Source: a virus (Duplodnaviria > Caudoviricetes). Taken from it: a stretch of DNA of 64,000 nucleotides. The stretch is from positions 1-64,000 of the IMG/VR virus record IMGVR_UViG_3300032327_001202; one strand, 5' to 3'. The notes beneath the pieces are model-generated. The model was not told the DNA's origin. It saw only the letters and a list, made by a program, of their open reading frames with translations, and searched no databases. Position 1 is the first letter of the stretch. Each line of letters opens with the position of its first letter. Positions 1,150 through 40,773 of this stretch are shown here, piece by piece. Made by a program: the position numbers and the translations under genes.

Positions 1150-3678
1150 TTATGCAGAACATACTTCACAATCTTCATCATCATTTGGTTTTGAAAAATT
1201 AATCTGAGTTTTATTCTCTTCTTTATCCTGTGTTGTGAACTTAATAGCACTTGCAGCACCTTTCAATCTTAGATAATAAATACCAGTTTTTAAGTTAGTT
1301 TTATCTTCTCTATAGAACTTAGGATTACCCAATTTATCATAAACTACATCAACACCTTCTGGAATTATTGAATTACCCATTTTATCTAAATTGAAACTTC
1401 TTCTACCCCATCCATAAAAATGCATAGATGTTAATTTAGCAAAGTTAGGTGCTTCCATAAAGATATTCAAAGATTGAGTTTGATCTATAAATGCTCCTCT
1501 ATCCGCAGACATATCTATAATATCTCTTTGTTTAATTTCCCAAACTGTTTTATAAATTTCTTTAATTTCAGTTGGAATTTCAGGTATATTTTGGATAGAA
1601 CCATCTTCATTAATAATTTTAGTTCTAATTTTATCAGACCATATACCCAATTTAACTAATTCTTTTACTAAGTATTTATTTACTATAATAAATTCGCCTG
1701 AAAGAACCCTTCTAACATATAAATTAGAATTTTGAGCCTCATATGATGCTCCATTTCCTAATATAGATGATGTACTTGCGGTTGGCATCACTGCTGTTGT
1801 TAATGAGTTTCTAACACCATATTTTACAACTTCTGTTCTTAACTTATTCCAATCATATCTATCAGATGGTTTAGTATTCCATAAATCAAATTGGAATTTA
1901 CCTTCTGATAATGGAGAACCCTTAAATGTAGCATATGCTCCTTGTTCTTTAGCTAAATCATTTGATGCTTTAATAGCAGCATAATAAATAGTTTCAAATA
2001 TTTCTTTGTTAATCTTTTTAGCTTCAGGACTATCATAAGGTATATTCATTAAGAAAAATACATCTGCTAAACCTTGAATACCTAATCCAATTGGTCTGTG
2101 TAAAAAGTTAGAAAACTTCGCACTTTCTGATGGATAATAGTTTGTTTCAATAACATTATTTAAGTTAATAGTTGCTTGATAAGATACTTCATATAATTTC
2201 TTATGATTTAATGTTCTGTTTTTATTAACAAATTTTGAAAGAGCAATTGATGCTAAGTTACAAACCGCAGTTTCATTAACACTTTCTCTATTATAGAACT
2301 CACCTAATTTAAGACTTTCTAACAATTCTTTATTCTTAAGAATTTCTTTTTGAATCTTTGTAATTCCCGAGCATTCTAATATTTCTGCACAAAGATTCGA
2401 ACTTCGAATAATACCAATATTAGACTGATTAGATTTTTTATTAATAGCGTCTTTATATAAGATATAAGGAGTTCCTGTCTCAATTTGTGATTCAAGAATT
2501 TTATTCCATACTTCCCTTGCTTTAATGGTTTTTTTACCTCTACCTTCTGTTTCATATTTGATATAAAGTTCTTCAAACTCTTTACCATATGTTTCAGTTA
2601 ATCCTGAACACTCATGAGGATCCATTAAAGTCCAATCTTCATCTAAGTCAACTCTAATCATAAATAAATCATTCATCCACATAGCTAAGAATAAATCTCT
2701 AGCACGAATTTCTTCTTTACCTTGATTCTTTCTTAAATCTAAGAAGTCTAAAATATCTGGATGCCAAGGCTCTAAATACATTGCTATACTTCCTTTTCTT
2801 TTACCACCACCTTGATCAACTGCGCGAGCTACTTCATTATAGATTTTTAAGAAAGGTATAATACCATTAGATGTACCATTAGTTCCTGAAATATAAGTTC
2901 CTTTACTTCTTATTTTAGAAAAATCTATACCAATCCCACCTGCATTTTTAGATATTTGTGCACTTTCTTTAATGTTATCAAATATACCTTCAATGCTATC
3001 ACTTACCGATAGTAAGAAACATGAACTTAATTGAGTTCTTGTTGTACCTGAGTTAAATAGAGTTGGAGTTGCGTGAGTATATAATCCTTCTGAAAGAAGG
3101 TTATAAGTTTCGATAACTTTAGGTATATTATTTCCCCATATTTGTAAAGCTGTTCTCATATACATATATTGAGGTCTTTCTGCTACTTTACCATTAATCT
3201 TTAATAAGTAAGATTTTTCTAAAGTCTTATATCCAAAATAATCAAAGTTATGATCTCTTGAATGTATAATAGCAGAATCTAATTCATCTTTATTAGCCAT
3301 TACTAAATCATAAAAATCTTTTGATACTATTGGTTTGTGATCATTTTTTATATCATAAAAATGATATAAATCATAAACTGTTTCTGAGAACCCTTTTTTA
3401 GTTTCTTTGTGTAAAGCTGTAATAGCTAATCTAGCAGCTAAAATTGCATAATCAGGGTGTTTTGTAGTTAATGATGCTGCTGTTTCCATAGCAAATACAT
3501 CTAGTACTCTTGTTTCTATATCAGGTGTTATACCTTCAATAACCTTTTGAGCTATCTCAAAAGGCATTATCCATTTTTGGTCTAAGCCGTATGTTTGTTG
3601 ATTGATTCTATCAAGAATCTTATCTAAGACAACTAGCTCTCGTTTACCATTTCTTTTTGTTACTTTTATCATGTTCAT
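1150..3678 (-). CDS. nrdA: Ribonucleotide reductase class Ia large subunit with N-terminal ATP cone
   Basis: ATP cone (VTKRNG), TPTLFNSGT, SSCFL, QGGGKRKGS, SNLCAEI, VCNLAS, MPTASTS, KTGIYYLR and C-terminal CEVCSA. Confidence 0.97.
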   Translation of the reverse strand: MNMIKVTKRNGKRELVVLDKILDRINQQTYGLDQKWIMPFEIAQKVIEGITPDIETRVLDVFAMETAASLTTKHPDYAILAARLAITALHKETKKGFSETVYDLYHFYDIKNDHKPIVSKDFYDLVMANKDELDSAIIHSRDHNFDYFGYKTLEKSYLLKINGKVAERPQYMYMRTALQIWGNNIPKVIETYNLLSEGLYTHATPTLFNSGTTRTQLSSCFLLSVSDSIEGIFDNIKESAQISKNAGGIGIDFSKIRSKGTYISGTNGTSNGIIPFLKIYNEVARAVDQGGGKRKGSIAMYLEPWHPDILDFLDLRKNQGKEEIRARDLFLAMWMNDLFMIRVDLDEDWTLMDPHECSGLTETYGKEFEELYIKYETEGRGKKTIKAREVWNKILESQIETGTPYILYKDAINKKSNQSNIGIIRSSNLCAEILECSGITKIQKEILKNKELLESLKLGEFYNRESVNETAVCNLASIALSKFVNKNRTLNHKKLYEVSYQATINLNNVIETNYYPSESAKFSNFLHRPIGLGIQGLADVFFLMNIPYDSPEAKKINKEIFETIYYAAIKASNDLAKEQGAYATFKGSPLSEGKFQFDLWNTKPSDRYDWNKLRTEVVKYGVRNSLTTAVMPTASTSSILGNGASYEAQNSNLYVRRVLSGEFIIVNKYLVKELVKLGIWSDKIRTKIINEDGSIQNIPEIPTEIKEIYKTVWEIKQRDIIDMSADRGAFIDQTQSLNIFMEAPNFAKLTSMHFYGWGRRSFNLDKMGNSIIPEGVDVVYDKLGNPKFYREDKTNLKTGIYYLRLKGAASAIKFTTQDKEENKTQINFSKPNDDEDCEVCSA

Positions 3679-3757
3679 AATTATAGTTTTGTATTTTATA
3701 TATTGTTCTAAAAATATTTTATTTAGAAGAAAGATTATTTTTTTATGTTTTTTTATG

Positions 3758-4696
3758 TTAAATAAAATCTAAGTTATTTAATTTATTTAGATTAAATCTA
3801 AACTTAGAATTATTAAGAATTTTAGTAATTTTATCTATTGTTATAATATATTTTTTTTCAAATGAGTCTACTAAATATGTATGCTCATCTTTATCAATTT
3901 CAATTACAATTCCTGTTATCAACTTATCATTATATTCTTCGTCAATCCAAACAAATTCTAATTCAGTTCCTATACTTATATTTTTATGAGCAACATCTTT
4001 AGAAATTTCTTGTTTTCCTATATGAACTTGCAACTCAGCAATTATAACATTTCTCCACTTATTATCCAATAACTTAAACATATTAAATAAATTATCAGAA
4101 AAATAAACTGCTAATTCATTAAATATTTCTACATTTGAAAATTTTTCCTGATGTAATCTAGTTTTCAATAACTGAAAATAATTATTAAAATCAGATTTAG
4201 CAGGTTTTCTTCTATTATTAAAGAAGTTTATATCTGTATTATCTAACAATACTTCATAAACCTTTTCTTTAATCCTTTTATTTCTAATAAAGTTTTCATT
4301 ATTTTGAGATTCATCCCAATATTGAGTAGATCTTTCTACATCAAATTTTTCTTCTAATTGAATTAAATCAAAATCATCTTCACTTATATTTTCTTCCTTC
4401 TTACCCTTAAAGATAGAATCATATTTAAGAGAATGTTTACCTTCTATTGTATGCTTAGATACTAAGATATCTTCTATATACTCTTCGGGTCCTTCTATTT
4501 TTTCTACATCTAAATCAAGTTCTATATCTAAATCTTCTTCTAAGTCGGGAGTTTCTTCATCTAAATTAATAATATCTTCTTCATCAATTTCAATGACTTC
4601 ATCGCACTTATCATCTAAGATTTCTTCATTATATGAAGATTCGTCTAAATTATCGGATAAGTTTTCATCTACTATAGTAGTTTCTTTTTTACTCAT
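3758..4696 (-). CDS. Hypothetical protein with acidic N-terminal region
   Basis: 312-aa ORF, D/E-rich first ~80 aa, no recognisable motif. Confidence 0.6.
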   Translation of the reverse strand: MSKKETTIVDENLSDNLDESSYNEEILDDKCDEVIEIDEEDIINLDEETPDLEEDLDIELDLDVEKIEGPEEYIEDILVSKHTIEGKHSLKYDSIFKGKKEENISEDDFDLIQLEEKFDVERSTQYWDESQNNENFIRNKRIKEKVYEVLLDNTDINFFNNRRKPAKSDFNNYFQLLKTRLHQEKFSNVEIFNELAVYFSDNLFNMFKLLDNKWRNVIIAELQVHIGKQEISKDVAHKNISIGTELEFVWIDEEYNDKLITGIVIEIDKDEHTYLVDSFEKKYIITIDKITKILNNSKFRFNLNKLNNLDFI

Positions 4697-4746: not shown

Positions 4747-5856
4747 TTAAGAATCTAAAAATGTTTCATTCTCTAATGTCAAGTATTTAGAATTAAGATT
4801 AATTCTCATTTGACTCTTGGAAAAATCACCATCCCGCTGTTTTAATAACTTAAATCTATATAAATTAATTTTTTTCATTTCATCCGTTCTTATTATCGCA
4901 AAGAATGTATCCGCTGTCTCCGCAATCGCTTTACTTTCAGGTACTGATTCTAATGTTATATCAGATGCATTCCAAGCATCTTTCGCTACTTGAACTGCTG
5001 TTAATACAGGACAATCATATTTAGCTGCAATTGCTCTTAAACCTTCAGCTATAGATTTACCTTTAGAATATAAATTATCTCCAGAAATACCTTTAACAGG
5101 AGCAATAAGTGTTATATAATCAATAATAATAAAATCTATTTTTATATTAGCTTTATCTTTTAATTTTTGGATAAAGAAATCAAAGTCATTTACAGTTGCT
5201 GTACCTGCTGCCCAAAACTTAGTGATAATTTTACCTATTTTTTTCTCAAATAAATCATCCGAATTACTTTTCAGAGCATTTATCTTTTTCATCATAAACT
5301 CCTTATCTTTAGATATTTCATCATAATCATTAATAGGGATATTTAACCTCATTGCTCCTAATCTTTTAAGAACCTTTTTTTCAGACATTTCTAGTGTAAT
5401 ATATAGAACATTATTACCTAAATTAGCAGCTCTTACTGCAAAGTTTTGCATCCATAAAGAATTATGACTTAATATATCATTTGTATAATATTGCTTACTA
5501 GAACCTTCTGAAATTTGTAAATCATACATATTTGATTTCTTACCATTTTTATACATTTCCATTATCATTTCAGGACCTGTTTTAGTCATAATAAAATCGC
5601 CAATTGATAAATTTTCACAATAAATTTCAGTTAAATCACATTTTTTAGTAATAAAATCCATGTTATCACACCGATATAATATATGTTTATCCGCACATAT
5701 TATATCACCACCATTATCCAATAATATATACCATTCTTCAAATTCTATTGTTTTACCAATACCTTCTATATTTATCCATCCATTGGGAGTTAATACTTCG
5801 TAATTTTTAACTTCATAGCCCTCAATAAATTTTTCATATAATATTTTTTCTTCCAT
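4747..5856 (-). CDS. gp41/DnaB-like replicative helicase, C-terminal part, preceded by a 132-aa C-intein
   Basis: Residues 1-132 contain intein block B (CADKH) and blocks F/G (MYDLQI...YYTNDILSHN). They are followed by S-LWMQN and helicase motifs YITLEM, IIIDYI, TAVQV, ESKAIAETAD, KQRDG. Confidence 0.9.
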   Translation of the reverse strand: MEEKILYEKFIEGYEVKNYEVLTPNGWINIEGIGKTIEFEEWYILLDNGGDIICADKHILYRCDNMDFITKKCDLTEIYCENLSIGDFIMTKTGPEMIMEMYKNGKKSNMYDLQISEGSSKQYYTNDILSHNSLWMQNFAVRAANLGNNVLYITLEMSEKKVLKRLGAMRLNIPINDYDEISKDKEFMMKKINALKSNSDDLFEKKIGKIITKFWAAGTATVNDFDFFIQKLKDKANIKIDFIIIDYITLIAPVKGISGDNLYSKGKSIAEGLRAIAAKYDCPVLTAVQVAKDAWNASDITLESVPESKAIAETADTFFAIIRTDEMKKINLYRFKLLKQRDGDFSKSQMRINLNSKYLTLENETFLDS

Positions 5857-6006
5857 TTTATTTTTATTTTTTTAAAAAATCTAAACATTTATTTAAATTG
5901 ACTTATGTCCCTGACTAATAGTGGTAAAGAGCGTTCCTATTTCAATTTTTTCTTCCTTACCAGTCAAGGTATTTCTTATATCTATAACAGTGGAAGAAAA
6001 AGAGCA
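5461..6006 (-). mobile_element. Atypically split intein in the helicase P-loop (IntN 5896-6006, IntC 5461-5856)
   Basis: Cys1 codon at 6004-6006; terminal His-Asn ends at 5461; +1 residue is Ser. Splicing would restore GK-S-LW. The 36-nt spacer holds two more in-frame stops. Confidence 0.85.
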
Positions 6007-6618
6007 TTTACCATTATTAGTTTCACTCATTAAACAATTTAATGTTCCTCTATCCCATCCACCACCTAACATAGTGTTAATAGTATTAAATCCTGAATTA
6101 ATTTTTAATACAGAACTATCTTGTGAGTGAGCTTCGGCATCATCAAAATCAGAACCTAAATCATCTTCTTTTATAAAGTTAGCGTTCATAGAATCTTCTA
6201 CGATAACTCTAATTTTATTAGCAATATCTGTTGTTTCTTCGATATTAGAAAGAGTTTCTAAATTTCTTGTTTGTTCAATAATGTCAGTAGTTCCATCTTT
6301 TATACGATTAGAAAGAATCCATGAGTTTATTTTTGGAAGAATAAAGTTCTTTTCATCATAATCTTCTATTTTAAGAGTTAACATTGACTTTAATATTTCT
6401 TTGGTAATTAATCCTTCATGATCTACTAAAGCCACCATTTCCCAAATTTGTTTAGGAGAAGGTATTTCTGCTTCTTTATTATTTAATACGTATTCTCTAA
6501 TTATTTCATATACGAATTTTAACTCATTATTCTTAAAAAAGTGTGTTTTAACTATGTGAAAAAATCTTTTATTTCCTAATATATACGAAAAGAATATTTT
6601 TTCTAATGAAATTGTCAT
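5893..6618 (-). CDS. gp41/DnaB-like replicative helicase, N-terminal part, ending in a 37-aa N-intein
   Basis: ...INSGFNTINTMLGGGWDRGTLNCLMSETNNGK|CSFSSTVIDIRN...: the Walker A GK is followed directly by an intein block-A Cys, and the ORF stops 37 aa later. Confidence 0.88.
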   Translation of the reverse strand: MTISLEKIFFSYILGNKRFFHIVKTHFFKNNELKFVYEIIREYVLNNKEAEIPSPKQIWEMVALVDHEGLITKEILKSMLTLKIEDYDEKNFILPKINSWILSNRIKDGTTDIIEQTRNLETLSNIEETTDIANKIRVIVEDSMNANFIKEDDLGSDFDDAEAHSQDSSVLKINSGFNTINTMLGGGWDRGTLNCLMSETNNGKCSFSSTVIDIRNTLTGKEEKIEIGTLFTTISQGHKSI

Positions 6619-6691: not shown

Positions 6692-7429
6692 ATGCAAGTA
6701 TTAAAATTTAAGCAGTATAAAAACTCTATTGATCTAGCAACAGATTTTTTAGATTTGCTTGGATCTAAAATTAATGAAGATAACGTTGTGAATGATATCT
6801 TAAATAAAGTAACAAATGATTTAAAATTAAATTTTACTCTTATCACTTCTTTTGGTACAGGTATAAGTTTTATATATCCTATTGTTGATAATTTAATCAA
6901 AAATTCAAAACTAAATATAGATATGTCTATTGAAAATATAGTTTTATTAACTATAACTTCTATAAGTATATTCTATCTTGAATCAAGAAAAGGAAAAGTG
7001 AATGAAAAACTCGAAAAAGAAGTTAAAAATTTACTTGAAGAATTAAAACTTAGAGGTATAGGAAATGGTATTGTTAAAAAATTAACAGAATGTCTAAAAG
7101 CTCTAAATAACATCTTCATAATCCTACTTAAGAACACATATAAAACCATCGAATCTTTTGTTGATATGTTTAGTTATACTTCAATTTTAGTGCCTATTTT
7201 GAGTGCTATAACAACACTAGTATCTAAAAATAATTATAACTTAGATACTTTTAGTAATAGTTTTATTTCTTTAGGTATAGGTATTACTACATTAACTGCT
7301 AAACACGGTTTAAATTGGTTAATACAGAAGTTAAAAAATAAAATCTATTTAAATAACGATATTAATAAAAATATCGCTACTCAAATAGATGATACTCCTA
7401 ATTCTAATTCTATGATAAACGAATCATAG
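6692..7429 (+). CDS. Hypothetical membrane protein
   Basis: 245 aa with several hydrophobic segments; TTTAATATATA motif upstream. Confidence 0.55.
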   Translation: MQVLKFKQYKNSIDLATDFLDLLGSKINEDNVVNDILNKVTNDLKLNFTLITSFGTGISFIYPIVDNLIKNSKLNIDMSIENIVLLTITSISIFYLESRKGKVNEKLEKEVKNLLEELKLRGIGNGIVKKLTECLKALNNIFIILLKNTYKTIESFVDMFSYTSILVPILSAITTLVSKNNYNLDTFSNSFISLGIGITTLTAKHGLNWLIQKLKNKIYLNNDINKNIATQIDDTPNSNSMINES

Positions 7430-8689
7430 TTTAACATTTACTCTTTTAATAGATTCTTGAAACCAAATAGGTAAATATTCTGAACTATATTTGATAATAT
7501 CTCCAAAAGATCCATCTATAATTATAGTATCAGCAAAGTCCGTTTTTGAACGAATACTTCTACCACACATTTGTTGTAAAATAGCACAGGTTTTCCATGC
7601 ATACCATTCAGGATTATTCTTCTGTCTTAGTTTATTTTTTTGTGAAGCTAAACTAGGATAAGGTACTTTTGCTATAATCTGAAATCTGCTTTTATCACCA
7701 TCAAAAGATACCCCTGTTGATATACTTGGTGATATTAAAACAGTTGGATCATCTGAATCAAAATGCTTTTTTAACATTTCTGTTTTATTAGCAGAATCAT
7801 GAAACAATAATCTTTTGTTTTTTATATCATTTTTAATCCAAGTTGATAATTCAAAAGAATTAGTATGTATAATTCCTTTACTATCTTTATACTTATTAAG
7901 TATTTTGTCTAAATAACTTTTGTAATTGATAAAAGTTTCTTCTTTTTTAGCATATGACATCTTACCTAATGGCATATAAAATATTTGTCTATTTTCAATA
8001 GGAAATGGAGAAGGTATAGAATAATATACACATTTTTTTAAATCCAATCCATTCAATTCTGAAAAGATTTTCTTACTTAAAATAGTACCTGACATTAATA
8101 TAACAGTATCATAATTATCCCATACATATTTATTCAAATACTTATATGACCATATTGGTTCTAATGATAATTCATATTGTTTTGTTTTATCATTATAACT
8201 TTTTTCCAAAACCCAATTCTCTCTATCATCATTATACTCCTTTAAGAAAACATCTATTTTAGTTTCATATTGTTTTAAATCTGCCATAACTTGTATAGAT
8301 TTAACATCATCATTAACATAATCTAAAATTTTAGATAACTTTAAATCTCTTTTAGTATTTTTAGCAGTTGATGGTGTACTAATCATATTATTAGTAGTTT
8401 GTGCTATTGTTAGTATAAGCTCTCCTTTAAAATATTCTAAGAATTGAATATAATCATCAATAGTAGCAACATATTTTAACTTACTTATTATTTCATCTTC
8501 ATTATCAAATCTTAATTTTTTAATTACGGTTTCTGTAATTTTTATTGAAATAAAATCTGACATAACTTCATCTAATAAATGGCAATTACTAACATTTAAA
8601 TTATTAGCAAAATAATTATGATTATCTTTAACTCTTAGATTATAAACATCTTCTTTATAATCTATTTTTTTTATTTTTTTTATTTTCAT
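7424..8689 (-). CDS. DinG/YoaA/XPD-like SF2 helicase, C-terminal part, preceded by a 35-aa C-intein
   Basis: MKIKKIKKIDYKEDVYNLRVKDNHNYFANNLNVSN|CHLLDE, then ILMSGTI, GIIHTNSF, STGVSF, IIAKVPYP, QQMCGRSIRSKTD and IIIDGSF motifs. Confidence 0.9.
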   Translation of the reverse strand: MKIKKIKKIDYKEDVYNLRVKDNHNYFANNLNVSNCHLLDEVMSDFISIKITETVIKKLRFDNEDEIISKLKYVATIDDYIQFLEYFKGELILTIAQTTNNMISTPSTAKNTKRDLKLSKILDYVNDDVKSIQVMADLKQYETKIDVFLKEYNDDRENWVLEKSYNDKTKQYELSLEPIWSYKYLNKYVWDNYDTVILMSGTILSKKIFSELNGLDLKKCVYYSIPSPFPIENRQIFYMPLGKMSYAKKEETFINYKSYLDKILNKYKDSKGIIHTNSFELSTWIKNDIKNKRLLFHDSANKTEMLKKHFDSDDPTVLISPSISTGVSFDGDKSRFQIIAKVPYPSLASQKNKLRQKNNPEWYAWKTCAILQQMCGRSIRSKTDFADTIIIDGSFGDIIKYSSEYLPIWFQESIKRVNVKL

Positions 8690-9830
8690 TTTTAAATTGT
8701 TTTAAATTTCTTATTAATTTTTCAGTACAAGATTGTTTTAATACTAATTTTTCATCATAATTATTTTTAAACCATTCATCAGTTATAATTACATAATTAT
8801 AACTATTTTCTTTTGCCCATTTTTCCGCATAAATAATTTTTACTTTTACTTTATCATCATCTAAATTAGATTTAGGTTTTATTTCATAAAAAGTTTTTTG
8901 AGAATGATCAACAAAATCAATTATATAGTTTTTATATTCATTATTATAAACATATGGAATAACTAATTTTTCATATAATAAATCAGGATTAAATAATTGA
9001 AAATATGCTTCCCAACACGATCTTAACTTTAAATTTATAATTTTGTTATTTCTTATAAAAGATATATCACATCTTGATTTTGCCCAACTATTACTTATTG
9101 GTGGTACAAACAACCCATCTTTTATTTTTTTCTTCATAGAAATAGATTGTTTTTTATAAGATTTTTTACGAGTTTCTTCAGTCATTTTATGACTAGTATT
9201 ATTATCACCTTTTTGTATATTAGAAAAATACAAACTAGCACATTTTTTACTACAAAACGGATATATATCTTTTGTATTTCTTCTTGGTAATAAACCAATT
9301 GATTTTTTATTATTATTACATTCTTTTATTCCACATTTTTTATCCCAATGTGATGTTAAATAGTTTTTAACATTCTCTAAAGTAATTTTGGGTAATTCTA
9401 AAATATAATCGTTCTCAATTAAAATTTTATCTAATTTTAGATTTAATCTTTCTTCACCTTTCATATTTAATATCTGTCTTTTTATTAGAAAAGATGATAA
9501 AAAATCATATATTTTATCTTTTTCTTCGTTTGTCATATATTATATATTAATAATATCATCATCTTCTGATAAATCTTCTACTTTTTTCCATTCTCCAGTT
9601 TTTAATCTAACTTTGTGATTCCCTGTTATTTTTAACATAACACCATTTTCCATTTCTAACTCATACATCTGTTGATTTTTACTAAGATTTTTATATACAT
9701 ATTCTACTTCTTTATTTTCATATTCATTAGTTTCTTCATTTAAAGTAAGTACATATTCACCTTCTTTTATATCTTTAATCTTTTTATCTTCCCCTGTACT
9801 CATTTTAATATAACTATCAGGATGTAAACA
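8585..9830 (-). mobile_element. Canonically split intein in the helicase DExH motif with nested endonuclease gene
   Basis: IntN 9543-9830 (Cys1 TGT at 9828-9830); IntC 8585-8689 ends Ser-Asn; +1 residue is Cys. Splicing would restore DE-C-H. Confidence 0.88.
8655..9536 (-). CDS. Free-standing endonuclease (TnsA-N/gp4-like PD-(D/E)xK) nested between the split helicase halves
   Basis: LRSCWEAYF...YIIDF...FYEIKPK...WAKEN..YVIITD, plus an N-terminal Cys motif (CGIKEC...FCSKKC). Confidence 0.75.
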   Translation of the reverse strand: MTNEEKDKIYDFLSSFLIKRQILNMKGEERLNLKLDKILIENDYILELPKITLENVKNYLTSHWDKKCGIKECNNNKKSIGLLPRRNTKDIYPFCSKKCASLYFSNIQKGDNNTSHKMTEETRKKSYKKQSISMKKKIKDGLFVPPISNSWAKSRCDISFIRNNKIINLKLRSCWEAYFQLFNPDLLYEKLVIPYVYNNEYKNYIIDFVDHSQKTFYEIKPKSNLDDDKVKVKIIYAEKWAKENSYNYVIITDEWFKNNYDEKLVLKQSCTEKLIRNLKQFKNENKKNKKNRL

Positions 9831-10331
9831 TTCATCCACAATTAATAATCTAGAATCTCTATTCTCTAATAACTTAGGAGTATATAAAGAATGTATTAAA
9901 TACAAATGAAAATTAGTTAATGAAACTCTACCACCAATATATGCTTCTTTAGCAGAATCATACGGACAAAAATCACAAACAGTTTTATTTAACTTATTAA
10001 ACTCTTTACCTTGAGCACAAGAACAACTATAACTTGAACAATTATAATTATCTTTCCCTTTTAAGTTGGTAATTGATTCGTATTCTTCGTCATATTGATC
10101 TTGAAGAATTTTACCAGGTGTAATTATATCTACTTTTGAATCAGGACTTACTATATTTAAAAACCATTGACTTATCATAAGTGCTAAATGACTTTTACCT
10201 GTCCCTACAGGTAAGTTCATTAGATAAAATTTATTATCAGGTTTATTAGCATGAATTTTCTTAACAAATTCTAATGCTTCATCTTGTTCTTTTCTTGGTG
10301 TGTATCTATTTAAATCTTCTCTTAATCCCAT
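9540..10331 (-). CDS. DinG/YoaA/XPD-like helicase, N-terminal part, ending in a 96-aa N-intein
   Basis: Q motif (PRKEQ), Walker A (PVGTGKS), Cys cluster, Walker B LLIVDE|CLHPDSYI..., intein block B ITGNHKV; ORF ends DDDIINI. Confidence 0.9.
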   Translation of the reverse strand: MGLREDLNRYTPRKEQDEALEFVKKIHANKPDNKFYLMNLPVGTGKSHLALMISQWFLNIVSPDSKVDIITPGKILQDQYDEEYESITNLKGKDNYNCSSYSCSCAQGKEFNKLNKTVCDFCPYDSAKEAYIGGRVSLTNFHLYLIHSLYTPKLLENRDSRLLIVDECLHPDSYIKMSTGEDKKIKDIKEGEYVLTLNEETNEYENKEVEYVYKNLSKNQQMYELEMENGVMLKITGNHKVRLKTGEWKKVEDLSEDDDIINI

Positions 10332-10346
10332 TATTTATTTTTATTT

Positions 10347-11342
10347 TTAATCTTCTAACTTTATTTTATCCCATAAAAACAAACAATCATCTTTTTTTAT
10401 TGATATAATTTCTTTATCTTCAATAAAAAAACAACTTTTTTTATTTCTCTTATGAAGAATTAAATCTTTTCCATATATATTTATACTATCTCCTATTTTA
10501 TAAAAAAATGAGTTTCTTAATACTTTATCTTTTTCTTCCTTAAACTTAAATATAAATTTAGAAGGTATTTTAACTAAATTTCTACATCTTCTTCCAATTG
10601 AAGATTCAGTCATATTTAATTCAACTGAGGCTTCTTTAATAGAAGAAAACTCTTTAATAAAATTTCCTTCTAAATCATATTGAATAATAGATTTTTTTTG
10701 AAATTTAGACATTTTTAATTTTAATTTATTATTATCAATAACTTTATTTCTATTAATTTTTATTTTTTCAATTGTTTCATCAGAATGCTTTTTACCAAAC
10801 ATAGGATGATTAATACCTATAACTCTATCAGATTGTTCTTGTTTAACTTTTTCTGTATGATGTTTTCCAAAAAAAGGATTTTTTTCCCCTAAGTTTATTT
10901 TACTAAAATGCTGTTTTTGCTCTTCAGATATTGGATTATTTTCATAAAATTTTTTTCTTGATAAAATTGCTTTTAATTTAGAATCTCTAGTTATTTGAAA
11001 ATCATAACCACCATTCCCACCTTCACATAGATTAGTTAAAGGTCCTGTATTTATGTTAATTCGACCAATTTTTGATATAACTTTTTTTTCTAATTCATAA
11101 GCTTTACTTTCCTCTTCTATATCATTATATATAATGATAGTTTTTATTTCTATATTATTTTCGTTTAATTTTTTTATTTTATTTGATTTAAAATCAAATG
11201 ATTTCGTTTTTTTAGACTGAGTGTACCTTCTACCACTGCCTTTTCCTACATAAAAAGGTTCGAATTCGAATTCTAAATCATCATAGATAAATTGTCCTGA
11301 TTTAGAAGAATCTAAATAAACATAAATGTAATATTTTTTCAT
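10347..11342 (-). CDS. GIY-YIG-type homing endonuclease with NUMOD3 and NUMOD1 repeats
   Basis: YIYVYLD...PFYVGKG..RY N-terminus; GEKNPFFGKHH and NHPMFGKKHS repeats; IIQYDLEGNFIKEFSSIKEAS. Confidence 0.8.
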   Translation of the reverse strand: MKKYYIYVYLDSSKSGQFIYDDLEFEFEPFYVGKGSGRRYTQSKKTKSFDFKSNKIKKLNENNIEIKTIIIYNDIEEESKAYELEKKVISKIGRININTGPLTNLCEGGNGGYDFQITRDSKLKAILSRKKFYENNPISEEQKQHFSKINLGEKNPFFGKHHTEKVKQEQSDRVIGINHPMFGKKHSDETIEKIKINRNKVIDNNKLKLKMSKFQKKSIIQYDLEGNFIKEFSSIKEASVELNMTESSIGRRCRNLVKIPSKFIFKFKEEKDKVLRNSFFYKIGDSINIYGKDLILHKRNKKSCFFIEDKEIISIKKDDCLFLWDKIKLED

Positions 11343-11393: not shown

Positions 11394-12932
11394 CTAATCT
11401 TCTAATTCTTGTTCTAATTGTTTAATTTCATCCAAAATTTGCTTTAATTCCTCTTTTTTCTTCATCATTATGTTTTTATTCTTTTTCCTATCACTAAATA
11501 CATCTATTAACATATTTATAGTAGGTGAAACTACTTTTTTAAAAACACAACCATTATTGCAAATAACTACATTATCAAAATCAATTTCTGTACCATTAGT
11601 ACAGAAATTTTTATTATTTGGGTTTTGAATTCCTACAAAATTTTCAGGTGAAATGTAGAATTGCATCTGGGTTCTGGGATAGAGGCTTGAAAAGTCATAA
11701 CAAACACACCACTTGTTCATTCCAACAATTGGGTCTTTAACAAATCCACCTTCTATTGTTCCTTCGTCACTACCTTCTTTTTCATCATCTTTAAATATGA
11801 TAGCGTTCATTTGATCTTTAAACCTATGTCTTAAAACTCCTTCTGTAATTGCTAATGTACCTAAATTATTTTTTGCTTTAGATAATACATCAGTAATTTT
11901 TATTCTTGATAAAGAACTTATCGCATAAATAATAGAGATATAGTTTTTGGCATCATGTATTTTTTGAACTAACACGGAATCCACCGCATTATAATACATA
12001 AAAGTTTCAAAATCATCTTCATATAATTTTTGTAAAGAACCATTATATTTAATTTTCTCTAATCCAATTAATTTATTAGATACAAATTCTAATTTAGAGG
12101 ATTCTTTAATCTTAATTGTAGTATCACAGATTTCATATAACTGCATATAATCAAAAATCATCTTATGTGCAGGCATTTCATAATCTTTCAACCAAATTTT
12201 ATTCATTTTTTTGGTTGGAGATGCTACCGCAGGATCAATAGTTATTTCTTTACCATTAATTTTCTTTTTTAATTTTCTTGACCTATTAACTAAATAAATC
12301 CAGTCATAGTTAACAAAGTTCCATCCTGTCATAACAGACATTTTTGGAACCATCGTATTAAAAAAGTTATACATCATATCAAATTCTGAATCGTATTTAA
12401 CATACTTAAACTTATATGTTGTTCCTAATTTTTTAAAGTATTTATTAGTATTATCTAATATACGTGTTTGTGTTTCACTTGATAAATCTTTTAATCCTAA
12501 AAGGATTATTTTATCTTCATAAACAATAGATATTGAAAGAACTTTTGTAGCTGCGCCTTCTTTAACTACATTTCCTGCTTCATCTTTAATATCAGCGGCT
12601 TCAGGAAATCCATCTACTATTTCAGTTTCAATATCTATAAAATAGATATTGGGTAAATTAAATTCAAAGATTTCTTCTCTTTCATTTTCGGGAAGAGTGT
12701 CTAAAAATTCATAAATAGAATATCTATTTGGGTATGGTGAATCTACTAATTTAATAGATTTACCATCCCATGATTTATATTTTTGATCTTTTTCAGAATC
12801 TTCATCATCACAAACTACGTATTTTTTGGGATTTGGCCATTTATAGTATTTTAGTTTAATATTTCCTGACTTATCGACATAGGAAACTACTAAATTTTTT
12901 GTACTTGGTAGGTATTGAGTATCAACTAGCAT
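11394..12932 (-). CDS. Family-B DNA polymerase, N-terminal part (3'-5' exonuclease through motif A)
   Basis: FIDIET (ExoI), GWNFVNYDW (ExoII), YNAVDS (ExoIII), GGFV..P, YDFSSLYP. Ends in a coiled coil before motifs B and C. Confidence 0.9.
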   Translation of the reverse strand: MLVDTQYLPSTKNLVVSYVDKSGNIKLKYYKWPNPKKYVVCDDEDSEKDQKYKSWDGKSIKLVDSPYPNRYSIYEFLDTLPENEREEIFEFNLPNIYFIDIETEIVDGFPEAADIKDEAGNVVKEGAATKVLSISIVYEDKIILLGLKDLSSETQTRILDNTNKYFKKLGTTYKFKYVKYDSEFDMMYNFFNTMVPKMSVMTGWNFVNYDWIYLVNRSRKLKKKINGKEITIDPAVASPTKKMNKIWLKDYEMPAHKMIFDYMQLYEICDTTIKIKESSKLEFVSNKLIGLEKIKYNGSLQKLYEDDFETFMYYNAVDSVLVQKIHDAKNYISIIYAISSLSRIKITDVLSKAKNNLGTLAITEGVLRHRFKDQMNAIIFKDDEKEGSDEGTIEGGFVKDPIVGMNKWCVCYDFSSLYPRTQMQFYISPENFVGIQNPNNKNFCTNGTEIDFDNVVICNNGCVFKKVVSPTINMLIDVFSDRKKNKNIMMKKKEELKQILDEIKQLEQELED

Positions 12933-39084: not shown

Positions 39085-40773
39085 TTATAATAAAAAAATC
39101 CACTTTTTATTGCCACCATTATATACTCTATAATATCCTAATTCTAGCATAATTTCTTCTTCAGTTTTATTTATATCATAACCCATTTTGACTAACTTAG
39201 ATTTTCTCCAATTAAATCTATGTTCTCTTTTTTTATCAATTACATACCAATATCCAGGTTTAGATGTATGTAAATAAGTAAAACCTAATTTTTCATACAT
39301 ATTTCCATTAGAAATTAAATTATCTGAATAAGTTTCTATTCTAATTGGAATCCATTTATCAATAAAATATTTTAATAATTTGGAAGCTCCACCAATTATA
39401 TTAGTGTTTATTATATTACAATACCGTGTTAACTCATAAACATGTTCTTGATTTTTTCCACCTAAAGGAAGTCTTAATTTAGAAAATGTCATTAAATTAA
39501 CTAATTCATTATTATAATATAACCCAATTCTTATTGATGATTTACAATCACCTTGAAAATGATTCCTATCTAAAAAATTTTTAGAAGTTGTATAATCAAC
39601 TTCTTTAATTACACATTTACGTGCTCCTATTTTATATGTTAAGTTTAATTTATTTAGAATATATGATTTACAGATTTCTTTTTTAATAACCCAATCATCT
39701 TCCCATATAGTAAATAAATTAATATTATTTTTTTCTGCTAATTGTTTTTTTATTAAATGATATTCTTCTTTTTTAAATTTCTCACTATGCCAATATAGCC
39801 CATTAAATTCAAACCCTAATTTTAATTCTGGTAAATAAATGTCAATTTCATACGGATTAATATAATCTTTAGTATTTACTATAATTTCTCCATTATAATT
39901 TTCTTTAATAAAATTATAAATATCAATTTGTTTAATACTTGAACTTTCTGATATAGGAAAGCAATTAGTACATATACTAGTATTATTAGTGACTCTATAA
40001 TAAAATTGATAAGTTAATATCTCAAAATTAGTATTACATTTTTTACAAAAAAATTTTAAATATGTAGTTATATTTTTATTAAAACCATTAAATTCATAAT
40101 CATTTTGATTAATTTTATCCATTATTCTTTTTTTATAATCAGAATAAAAAACATCAATTGATTTATCATGTATTTCTTTTATCATCCAATGATGTTCAAC
40201 TCCATATTTTTCAATGGATGTTTTTTTAAAATTTTCTTTAAAATCACTTATTTTAAAACTTTCTATTCTTTTTTTATTTAATTCTTCTGATTTATTGGGG
40301 TTATCTACACCCCAATTTTTTAATAAAGTTTGTTTAGATTTTTCTTGAGTTTTTTCTAAACACATAGCAGAATTAACCCCATATTTTTCTAAATTTGTTT
40401 TTATAATTTTTTGTTTTATTTCTAATGATTCAGCAGGGGTTTTAGTTCCATATTTAACAATAGATTTTTCTTGTTTAGATTTTTTTATATTTTCATCTGA
40501 ACTTATACATTTATTAGAGCAATAAGTTAAATATCCTATTGTTGAGTTTTTATACTTTACTTTATTACTACAATTATTATTTTTACATTTAGGAACTTCT
40601 TTTAAATTATTGACAGAGATAAAAACTTTTTCTTTAAAAGGTAAATCTCCTAATTCATTATTTATACAATAATCAATAATATATTCATATTCCTTTGGAT
40701 ATGTTTTTAACAAAGATTTTTCTTTACACATACTTCCAGAAGGATCACTTTTTTTAAAAATTTCTAAATCCAT
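39085..40773 (-). CDS. Hef-like homing endonuclease with KYG repeats
   Basis: Cys module, KYG..N repeats, EIDIYLPE..LGFEFNGLYWH, then ARKC...NHFQG...IIGGASKLL...GNMYEKLGF. Confidence 0.7.
   Translation of the reverse strand: MDLEIFKKSDPSGSMCKEKSLLKTYPKEYEYIIDYCINNELGDLPFKEKVFISVNNLKEVPKCKNNNCSNKVKYKNSTIGYLTYCSNKCISSDENIKKSKQEKSIVKYGTKTPAESLEIKQKIIKTNLEKYGVNSAMCLEKTQEKSKQTLLKNWGVDNPNKSEELNKKRIESFKISDFKENFKKTSIEKYGVEHHWMIKEIHDKSIDVFYSDYKKRIMDKINQNDYEFNGFNKNITTYLKFFCKKCNTNFEILTYQFYYRVTNNTSICTNCFPISESSSIKQIDIYNFIKENYNGEIIVNTKDYINPYEIDIYLPELKLGFEFNGLYWHSEKFKKEEYHLIKKQLAEKNNINLFTIWEDDWVIKKEICKSYILNKLNLTYKIGARKCVIKEVDYTTSKNFLDRNHFQGDCKSSIRIGLYYNNELVNLMTFSKLRLPLGGKNQEHVYELTRYCNIINTNIIGGASKLLKYFIDKWIPIRIETYSDNLISNGNMYEKLGFTYLHTSKPGYWYVIDKKREHRFNWRKSKLVKMGYDINKTEEEIMLELGYYRVYNGGNKKWIFLL

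Follow-up and report, generated by a model that had tools for sequence, protein, structure and literature searches.

Most natural split inteins are composed of a long N-terminal piece (IntN, ~90-120 amino acids) and a short C-terminal piece (IntC, ~35 amino acids). Among the surveyed literature, the natural examples named as atypically split are AceL-TerL, GOS-TerL, VidaL and PolB16 (PMC11766414, PMC13014065). Split sites S1 and S2 were defined previously (PMC13014065), and TerL inteins of the S2 type displayed an IntN of 25-37 amino acids ending after the first helix and an IntC of 104-115 amino acids (PMC11766414, PMC13014065). The fractured genes of Dassa et al. 2009 constitute another set, with gp41-1 to gp41-9, NrdJ-1, IMPDH-1 and a terminase (PMC2677866). 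Loci gp41-1 to gp41-7 are fractured at the equivalent of position 356 in cyanophage P-SSM2 gp41, gp41-8 and gp41-9 represent two further fracture sites, and an unusual break point occurred at the terminase locus only (PMC2677866). This study describes a locus from a tailed phage, found at positions 4,747 to 6,618 of a stretch of 64,000 nucleotides (hereafter the window, positions 1 to 64,000 of IMG/VR virus record IMGVR_UViG_3300032327_001202). There, the only detected DnaB-type helicase is encoded in two pieces and very probably carries a naturally split class-1 intein of the S2 type between the Lys and the Ser of its Walker A motif; the enzyme would be completed by trans-splicing and the locus would descend from a fractured gene.

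Like AceL-TerL, GOS-TerL and Cat-TerL, the window element is of phage origin and combines a long IntC, which contains blocks B, F and G, with a short IntN that stops after the first helix. It shares a putative Cys1 chemistry with AceL-TerL, and its terminase-borne database relatives are likewise inserted at GK|S/T. It differs from these by its host protein, a DnaB-like helicase instead of a terminase, by a longer IntC (132 amino acids, and 146-150 in most helicase relatives) and by Ser+1, where AceL-TerL and GOS-TerL have Cys+1. VidaL (6VGV) and PolB16 OarG (8CPN) are also naturally split near the N-terminus, and the HINT fold of VidaL aligned with the structure model of the window element (VIA-align Z 9.1, 131 aligned residues, root-mean-square deviation (rmsd) 5.7). 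Yet, both are split right after strand beta2 (IntN of 15-16 amino acids), whereas the IntN of the window includes helix alpha1. As in the fractured genes of Dassa et al. 2009 (PMC2677866), the break in this phage replication gene lies within an intein, and in relatives of the window the halves are separated by a free-standing, putatively Vsr-like endonuclease gene, the 3' end of which overlaps or abuts the start of IntC. The endonuclease was lost in the window as it was in gp41-7, a fractured gp41 locus; contrary to the window element, all gp41 inteins of that set are canonically split (IntN 88-105 amino acids, IntC 33-54 amino acids).

Anatomy and intein identity of the split helicase

The locus is composed of two open reading frames (ORFs), the N-gene and the C-gene (Table 1). 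The former encodes 241 amino acids and ends in ...CLMSETNNGK|C plus 36 further residues; the latter encodes 369 amino acids and starts with 132 intein residues (...NDILSHN), followed by SLWMQNFAV... The 36 nucleotides separating the N-gene TAA from the C-gene ATG keep the frame and include a TAG and a TAA. These ORF coordinates agree with an initial annotation of the window, which had read GK|C plus 36 residues at the end of one gene, 132 residues up to HN|S at the start of the other, and an in-frame 36-nucleotide spacer with stops.

No Pfam match was obtained for the window IntC or for the whole N-gene, and DnaB_C matched residues 137-353 of the C-gene only (E 1.2e-15). Both flanks were matched by PHROG 19 (DnaB-like replicative helicase): the N-gene on profile positions 160-370 (E 1.9e-14) and the C-gene, from residue 133, on positions 367-578 (E 1.4e-44). 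Since the N-gene and the C-extein abut on this profile, the two flanks are adjacent pieces of a helicase and the 37 + 132 residues are extra.

An IMG/VR scan returned 67 loci. About 45 of them encode a contiguous helicase of 442-446 amino acids, where ...NNGKSLWMQNF... is uninterrupted, which fixes the splice junction at GK|S within Walker A. The predicted spliced product of the window is of comparable size (204 + 237 = 441 amino acids), and its Walker A motif, NNGKSLWMQN, is complete only once the two exteins are joined. Seventeen further loci (68-75% identity) are broken at the split point of the window; their N-genes end in GK|C plus 34-39 residues and their C-genes open with 146-150 intein residues up to SHN|S. 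In addition, a word-indexed search of 5.8 billion proteins for IntC revealed 409 protein clusters sharing IntC and DnaB_C; the 120 clusters listed were mostly 369-397 amino acids long, which is the size of a split C-gene.

The best solved relative of IntC was the consensus atypical TerL intein Cat (6DSL chain B, E 7.8e-7), where IntC residues 15-131 aligned with chain positions 13-111 (positions 75-191 of the read-through model described below). The next-best solved match was gp41-1, and the IntC of a long-type relative matched 6DSL_B as well (E 1.5e-4). The IntN profile, which is short, matched no PDB chain. A comparison with known inteins had been proposed in the initial annotation; the match to the solved Cat IntC and the intact NNGKSLWMQN of intein-less relatives both support its claim of an atypically split intein in the P-loop of a replicative helicase. 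Together with the 409 clusters and the PHROG 19 alignments, they rule out a chance arrangement.

Cys1 (Cys205 of the N-gene product, directly after GK) was invariant in 14 sequences, and so was one Phe in the alignment of IntN with 13 relatives. The alignment of IntC with 13 relatives contained 47 invariant columns, and the block B His, the block F Asp, the terminal His-Asn and Ser+1 were all invariant across relatives. At block B (TxxH), the window intein displays CADKH versus CSDNH in Cat, SDNH being the aligned part of the Cat IntC. Cys1, the block B His, the HN|S of block G and an insertion site with intein-less alleles characterize the element as a predicted class-1 intein. The two ORFs, the 37-residue IntN, the 132-residue IntC with blocks B, F and G and the homology to a characterised member place it among atypically split inteins of the S2 kind.

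A structure model was obtained with AlphaFold2 (AF2) by folding the in-frame read-through as a single chain, stops being read as Gly. IntN adopted a strand-strand-helix arrangement (E17-22, E28-32, H33-43) and the core (residues ~100 to 170) displayed scores of 71-90. All 27 Foldseek matches with E <= 0.001 were intein or HINT entries. With VIA-align, the model aligned with the Mja TFIIB mini-intein 5o9j (Z 10.0, 146 aligned residues, rmsd 4.3), and the alignments to solved inteins (Z 8-10) covered IntN and IntC together, over model residues 14-192. The HINT fold thus appeared in a read-through model of low confidence, according to which IntN would end after helix alpha1, i.e. at split site S2 and not at S1, where an IntN of ~15-16 amino acids would be expected.

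Selection was estimated between the window and four relatives of its short-IntC clade as the ratio of nonsynonymous to synonymous substitution rates (dN/dS). Values were 0.05-0.13 for IntC, 0.04-0.16 for the C-extein and 0.09 for the N-extein, indicating that IntC is constrained as strongly as the helicase itself; this would fit an element whose activity is needed by an essential enzyme. IntN displayed a value of 0.34, obtained from 37 codons only and versus L070. Identities were mosaic, since the window and L073 share 97% in the C-extein and 89% in IntC, while L070 and L075 share 94% in IntC and 81% in the C-extein, which suggests that the intein region recombines independently of the host gene.

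The 20 nucleotides 5' of the C-gene ATG contain 75% A, versus a mean of 60% over 49 ORFs and 36% genome-wide, and no Shine-Dalgarno signal was found before this ATG. The start context of the C-gene is therefore the local norm, as anticipated in the initial annotation. Leaders of ORFs across the window were A-rich, with 55-77% A at the majority of positions between -20 and -2, and almost devoid of G, hence of any Shine-Dalgarno signal. Sigma-70-like promoter sites were fewer in the scan than in shuffles, so that the scan gives no guidance on promoters.

Table 1. Coordinates of the split helicase locus within the window
Feature	Position	Strand	Basis
N-gene, 241 amino acids	5893..6618	-	ORF
N-extein: N-terminal helicase domain through Walker A ...ETNNGK (N-gene residues 1-204)	6007..6618	-	PHROG 19
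IntN, 37 amino acids; Cys1 at 6004-6006	5896..6006	-	invariant Cys1 and Phe in relatives; AF2 strand-strand-helix
N-gene stop, TAA	5893..5895	-	Ile-TAA at the aligned position of the L070 N-gene
Spacer, 36 nucleotides	5857..5892	-	
Scar of the deleted homing endonuclease gene; reads LNKCLDFLKK-stop in the endonuclease frame	5864..5896	-	match to L074
Native endonuclease-to-IntC intergenic bases AAATAAA, directly 5' of the C-gene ATG	5857..5863	-	identical in L074
C-gene, 369 amino acids	4747..5856	-	ORF
IntC, 132 amino acids; block B CADKH at 5683-5697, block F Asp, terminal His-Asn at 5461-5466	5461..5856	-	homology to 6DSL_B
C-extein: Ser+1 (5458-5460) and remaining RecA-like helicase core	4750..5460	-	DnaB_C, PHROG 19

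The intervening gene of relatives and its remnant

Twelve of the 17 split relatives harbor an ORF of ~390 amino acids between the halves and the other five (three distinct) display a spacer of only 63-108 nucleotides. Endonuclease-less lineages with both halves intact are L008, L009/L010 and L017/L021. At its C-terminus, the intervening ORF displayed weak Pfam matches to the PD-(D/E)xK nuclease families MTES_1575 and DUF559 (E 2e-4 to 4e-3, below the cut-off), and its profile weakly matched Vsr in the PDB (E 0.14-0.2, FNGDxWH region); a single-sequence search of the PDB gave no match. By analogy with the fractured genes of Dassa et al. 2009, these characteristics fit a putative Vsr-like homing endonuclease. 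Within the clade of the window, which is characterized by a short IntC, the gene was found in L070/L071, L073, L074 and L075-77.

The most informative comparison was made with L074, whose C-gene shares 97% identity with that of the window and which has retained its endonuclease gene. From TTAAATAAATG onward, 3' of the N-gene, the window displays 100% identity to the last codons of the L074 endonuclease ORF. This identity extends through the 7-nucleotide intergenic stretch and the start of IntC, and 44 nucleotides upstream of the C-gene ATG are unchanged. The scar is also similar to the endonuclease 3' ends of L073 and L070. Upstream of TTAAATAAATG, the window continues as N-gene and L074 as endonuclease; the first bases of the scar overlap the N-gene end. 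The window therefore carries a ~1.2-kb deletion, the junction of which lies in a shared TTAA. In this alignment the spacer corresponds to the last ~30 nucleotides of the putative endonuclease gene followed by native intergenic bases, and its in-frame spacing and three stops result from reading the endonuclease remnant out of frame. Judged from the same alignment, the loss of the endonuclease is recent. A scar of a similar kind arose independently in L009. The hallmark of a fractured gene, a free-standing endonuclease between the halves, is therefore absent from the window, where a ~30-nucleotide scar only was found. The initial annotation was right that no gene intervenes in the window, but this is a secondary state, the scar of a deleted gene, and not an original condition.

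Alternative explanations of the spacer and of the short IntC were considered and discarded. Table-11 ORFs span 90% of the window and end in 43 TAA, four TAG and one TGA, showing that the source phage uses the standard genetic code with TAA as the usual stop. This excludes recoding or read-through of the in-frame stops, as do the out-of-frame origin of the spacer and the L070 N-gene, which ends in Ile-TAA at the aligned position. The short IntC of the window (132 versus 146-150 residues) is not deletion damage, because L070 and L073-L077 keep the endonuclease gene and yet display an equally short IntC, and most members of the wider family start at about the same profile position.

In most helicase relatives (among L004-L022), IntC displayed ~17 extra residues at its start (..NFEIIEADSLLEGKYD..), resembling intein block A without its Cys; this extension is lacking in the clade of the window and in most of the wider family. 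That it could be a duplicated block A acting in place of IntN was not supported by a read-through model of L008, where the extension had a pLDDT below 50 and IntN provided the N-terminal strands. In L011, a homolog of the anti-Thoeris protein Tad3 (positions 3340-3954, Pfam PF25185, E 1.3e-26) separates the endonuclease gene from that of IntC within the fractured helicase, and at the same position L013 has a DUF6934 ORF and L015 an ORF of 83 amino acids.

The wider intein family and the source phage

The IntC profile was searched against 1.84 billion cluster representatives and gave 812 matches at E <= 0.001, of which 420 at E <= 1e-10. Among the best 150 matches, 123 displayed the intein at the protein N-terminus (split form) and 27 internally (contiguous form), most of the latter after GK|C and an IntN-like segment. 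Hosts were labelled from exteins only: 99 split representatives scanned comprised, according to Pfam, 52 large terminases and 23 DnaB-type helicases, which are hence the second most frequent host in sequence data, and the remaining ones include Clp/AAA+, ABC, PIF1 and ParA-like ATPases. Family junctions were all HN|T or HN|S (113 representatives) and the median IntC length was 121 amino acids. In sequence databases, the family is large and mostly split, its members being inserted at the GK|S/T of P-loop NTPases, among them terminases and DnaB helicases. The rarity of short-IntN types mentioned in the initial annotation is consequently true of the literature but not of nature, where hundreds of split members were found in metagenomes.

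Contiguous members (P0169, P0270, P0134, P0135 and others) occur in DnaB-type and terminase P-loops. They share with the window the insertion after the Walker A GK, an IntN-like segment opening with Cys and a region homologous to IntC, and P0169, P0270, P0134 and P0135 differ from it by being single polypeptides (cis-splicing form). A quick intein tree (117 columns, 12 starred branches) was poorly resolved. It placed the window in a supported six-member clade where all four host-labelled rows were helicases. Hosts and split or contiguous states were interleaved, near-identical split and contiguous pairs included, and this apparent interleaving is all that such a tree can support.

Several members deserve separate mention. 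P0270 (615 amino acids), a DnaB-type helicase encoded in one piece, contains a contiguous member of the family after ...CGK|C. At the S2 position it displays ELNKCINFIKEN, similar to the C-terminal end of the putative Vsr-like endonuclease (…LEKCIKFINE); an in-frame deletion of the endonuclease may have turned a fractured gene back into one with a cis intein. Terminase piece P0148 has an IntC at its start, a second, contiguous intein inside and a third, short IntN at its end, indicating that one terminase was invaded at three sites. The terminase pieces P0242/P0148 and P0221/P0231 form pairs of near-identical inteins, contiguous in one case and split in the other.

The window is part of an 82.8-kb virus record with a CheckV completeness of ~15%. 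It encodes tail sheath, portal, major head protein, prohead protease and large terminase, which assign it to a tailed phage. The closest relatives of its helicase are encoded by uncultured phages in GenBank, whose records measure 635-735 kb, and by L070, a syntenic JGI contig of 636 kb. A single DnaB_C locus per record was found in the record of the window, in two intein-less relatives that are 95-97% complete and in five split-bearing relatives.

Other interrupted genes and free-standing endonucleases were observed. A second fractured gene (7424-10331, minus strand) encodes a DinG/XPD-like helicase interrupted by a canonically split intein: its N-gene (9540-10331, minus strand) ends in an IntN of ~96 amino acids, its C-gene (7424-8689) opens with an IntC of ~35 amino acids (SN|C), and a TnsA-like endonuclease ORF of 293 amino acids (8655-9536) separates the halves. 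The family-B DNA polymerase ORF (11394-12932, minus strand, 512 amino acids) contains the exonuclease domain only, according to Pfam, with no intein residues at its end; it is followed by a NUMOD1/NUMOD3 homing endonuclease gene (10347-11342, minus strand), and no C-half of the polymerase was located. Adjoining the tail sheath gene is a free-standing ORF of 562 amino acids (39085-40773, minus strand) that matched PHROG homing/HNH endonuclease families (E 1e-115) and, weakly, MTES_1575. Finally, the large subunit gene of ribonucleotide reductase is fractured in L070 (8392-12823), with Hint/Intein_splicing matches and a DUF723 ORF between the pieces, and its counterpart in the window (1150-3678) is an intact ORF of 842 amino acids.

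Proposed mechanism, alternatives and significance

According to the mechanism proposed here, the N-gene and the C-gene would probably be co-transcribed, giving an N-precursor of 241 and a C-precursor of 369 amino acids. The 37-residue IntN would fold onto IntC and complete the HINT domain. A Cys1 thioester would then be attacked by Ser+1, Asn132 would cyclise with the assistance of His131, and an O-to-N shift would re-form the GK-S peptide bond, yielding a helicase of 441 amino acids with an intact P-loop; ATPase activity would be impossible for either half alone. The ancestor would have been a fractured gene whose halves were separated by a free-standing, putatively Vsr-like homing endonuclease gene; a deletion of ~1.2 kb at a TTAA microhomology then removed the endonuclease gene, leaving its last ~30 nucleotides and the native start region of the IntC gene. 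The initial annotation had proposed that the ~441-residue helicase is made only by trans-splicing. The sequence-level tests presented above support this dependence, splicing itself remaining a prediction, and the split intein appears to be real and probably functional.

Several observations weigh against this interpretation. In block B, Ala replaces the Thr of most inteins; as this Ala did not vary among 99 representatives of the wider family, it appears as a family trait rather than a defect. Confidence in the AF2 model, built from an alignment of four sequences, is low (mean pLDDT 59.6, pTM 0.52) and particularly so around the two splice junctions, and association of the halves, like splicing, is predicted from sequence. 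The record completeness of ~15% leaves room for a second helicase, which may be located elsewhere in the genome. The window is also the only locus without an endonuclease gene found in its closest clade, and the deletion appears too recent for selection to have tested this exact arrangement much. Moreover, it took away whatever promoter accompanied the endonuclease gene.

The latter points bear on an explanation that we regard as very unlikely, namely that the locus was freshly disabled, the deletion having also impaired expression or stoichiometry of the C-half in a defective or transient population variant. The scar is 100% identical to the endonuclease-bearing relative, indicating a very recent event, and the gene is retained at each of the five other distinct loci in the short-IntC clade. 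Loci with an endonuclease also display, directly after the N-gene stop, an A/T-rich stretch with a TATA that the window has lost. Yet, both ORFs are intact, the 44 nucleotides upstream of the C-gene ATG are those of the endonuclease-bearing relative, and no terminator-like site was found between the two genes. The arrangement is not isolated either, since L008, L009/L010 and L017/L021 are also endonuclease-less with intact halves, and an endonuclease-less fractured gp41-7 was described by Dassa et al. 2009 (PMC2677866). Less probable still is an assembly artefact, in which reads would have been mis-joined across A/T-rich repeats while the true genome contains the endonuclease gene. The flanks are colinear, both ORFs are intact across the junction, and comparable deletions with different scars occurred in independent assemblies, even though the sequence comes from a metagenome assembly and the junction lies in low-complexity, A/T-rich sequence with a TTAA microhomology. 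Were the junction artefactual, the split intein would stay, as a standard fractured gene.

Hardly any credence is given to the possibility that the intein halves serve only as non-covalent dimerisation domains, or that the two proteins act separately, no peptide bond being formed. Every class-1 splicing residue is conserved and IntC is under strong purifying selection; without ligation, 169 intein residues would part the Walker A Lys from the Ser. In favor of this possibility, phage enzymes in fragments that are kept together by mobile-element remnants are known, one being a fragmented ribonucleotide reductase described as assembled by such domains (PMC3045599). A trans-spliced helicase derived from a fractured gene is thus retained as the preferred interpretation.

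No new principle is involved here, since this kind of split intein is already known from terminases and an endonuclease-less fractured locus was already described (gp41-7). The locus nevertheless adds a Cys1/Ser+1 example in a different host protein, beside the four natural examples named in the surveyed literature. Natural split inteins with a short N-piece are wanted for protein labelling or semisynthesis, as this piece can be synthesised, and the locus opens the way to hundreds of variants found in nature, among them pairs of near-identical split and contiguous forms, that could be screened for speed, orthogonality and extein tolerance. Near-identical alleles with and without the endonuclease gene also provide a record, at base-pair resolution, of endonuclease loss from a fractured gene.

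For the phage, a very large one, these results would mean that an essential replication enzyme relies on a predicted post-translational ligation. A broader view, which we put forward tentatively and to which we give somewhat less than an even chance, is that the window represents one step of a homing cycle specific to a large family of inteins targeting P-loops, S2 being a second general landing site for free-standing endonuclease genes. Members would alternate repeatedly among contiguous, fractured-with-endonuclease and split-without-endonuclease states and would move among the P-loops of terminases, DnaB helicases, Clp/AAA+, ABC and PIF1 proteins; an in-frame deletion of the endonuclease could heal a split gene to a cis intein, as the stretch in P0270 suggests. 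If so, split and contiguous inteins would be interconvertible states of this family and not end points.

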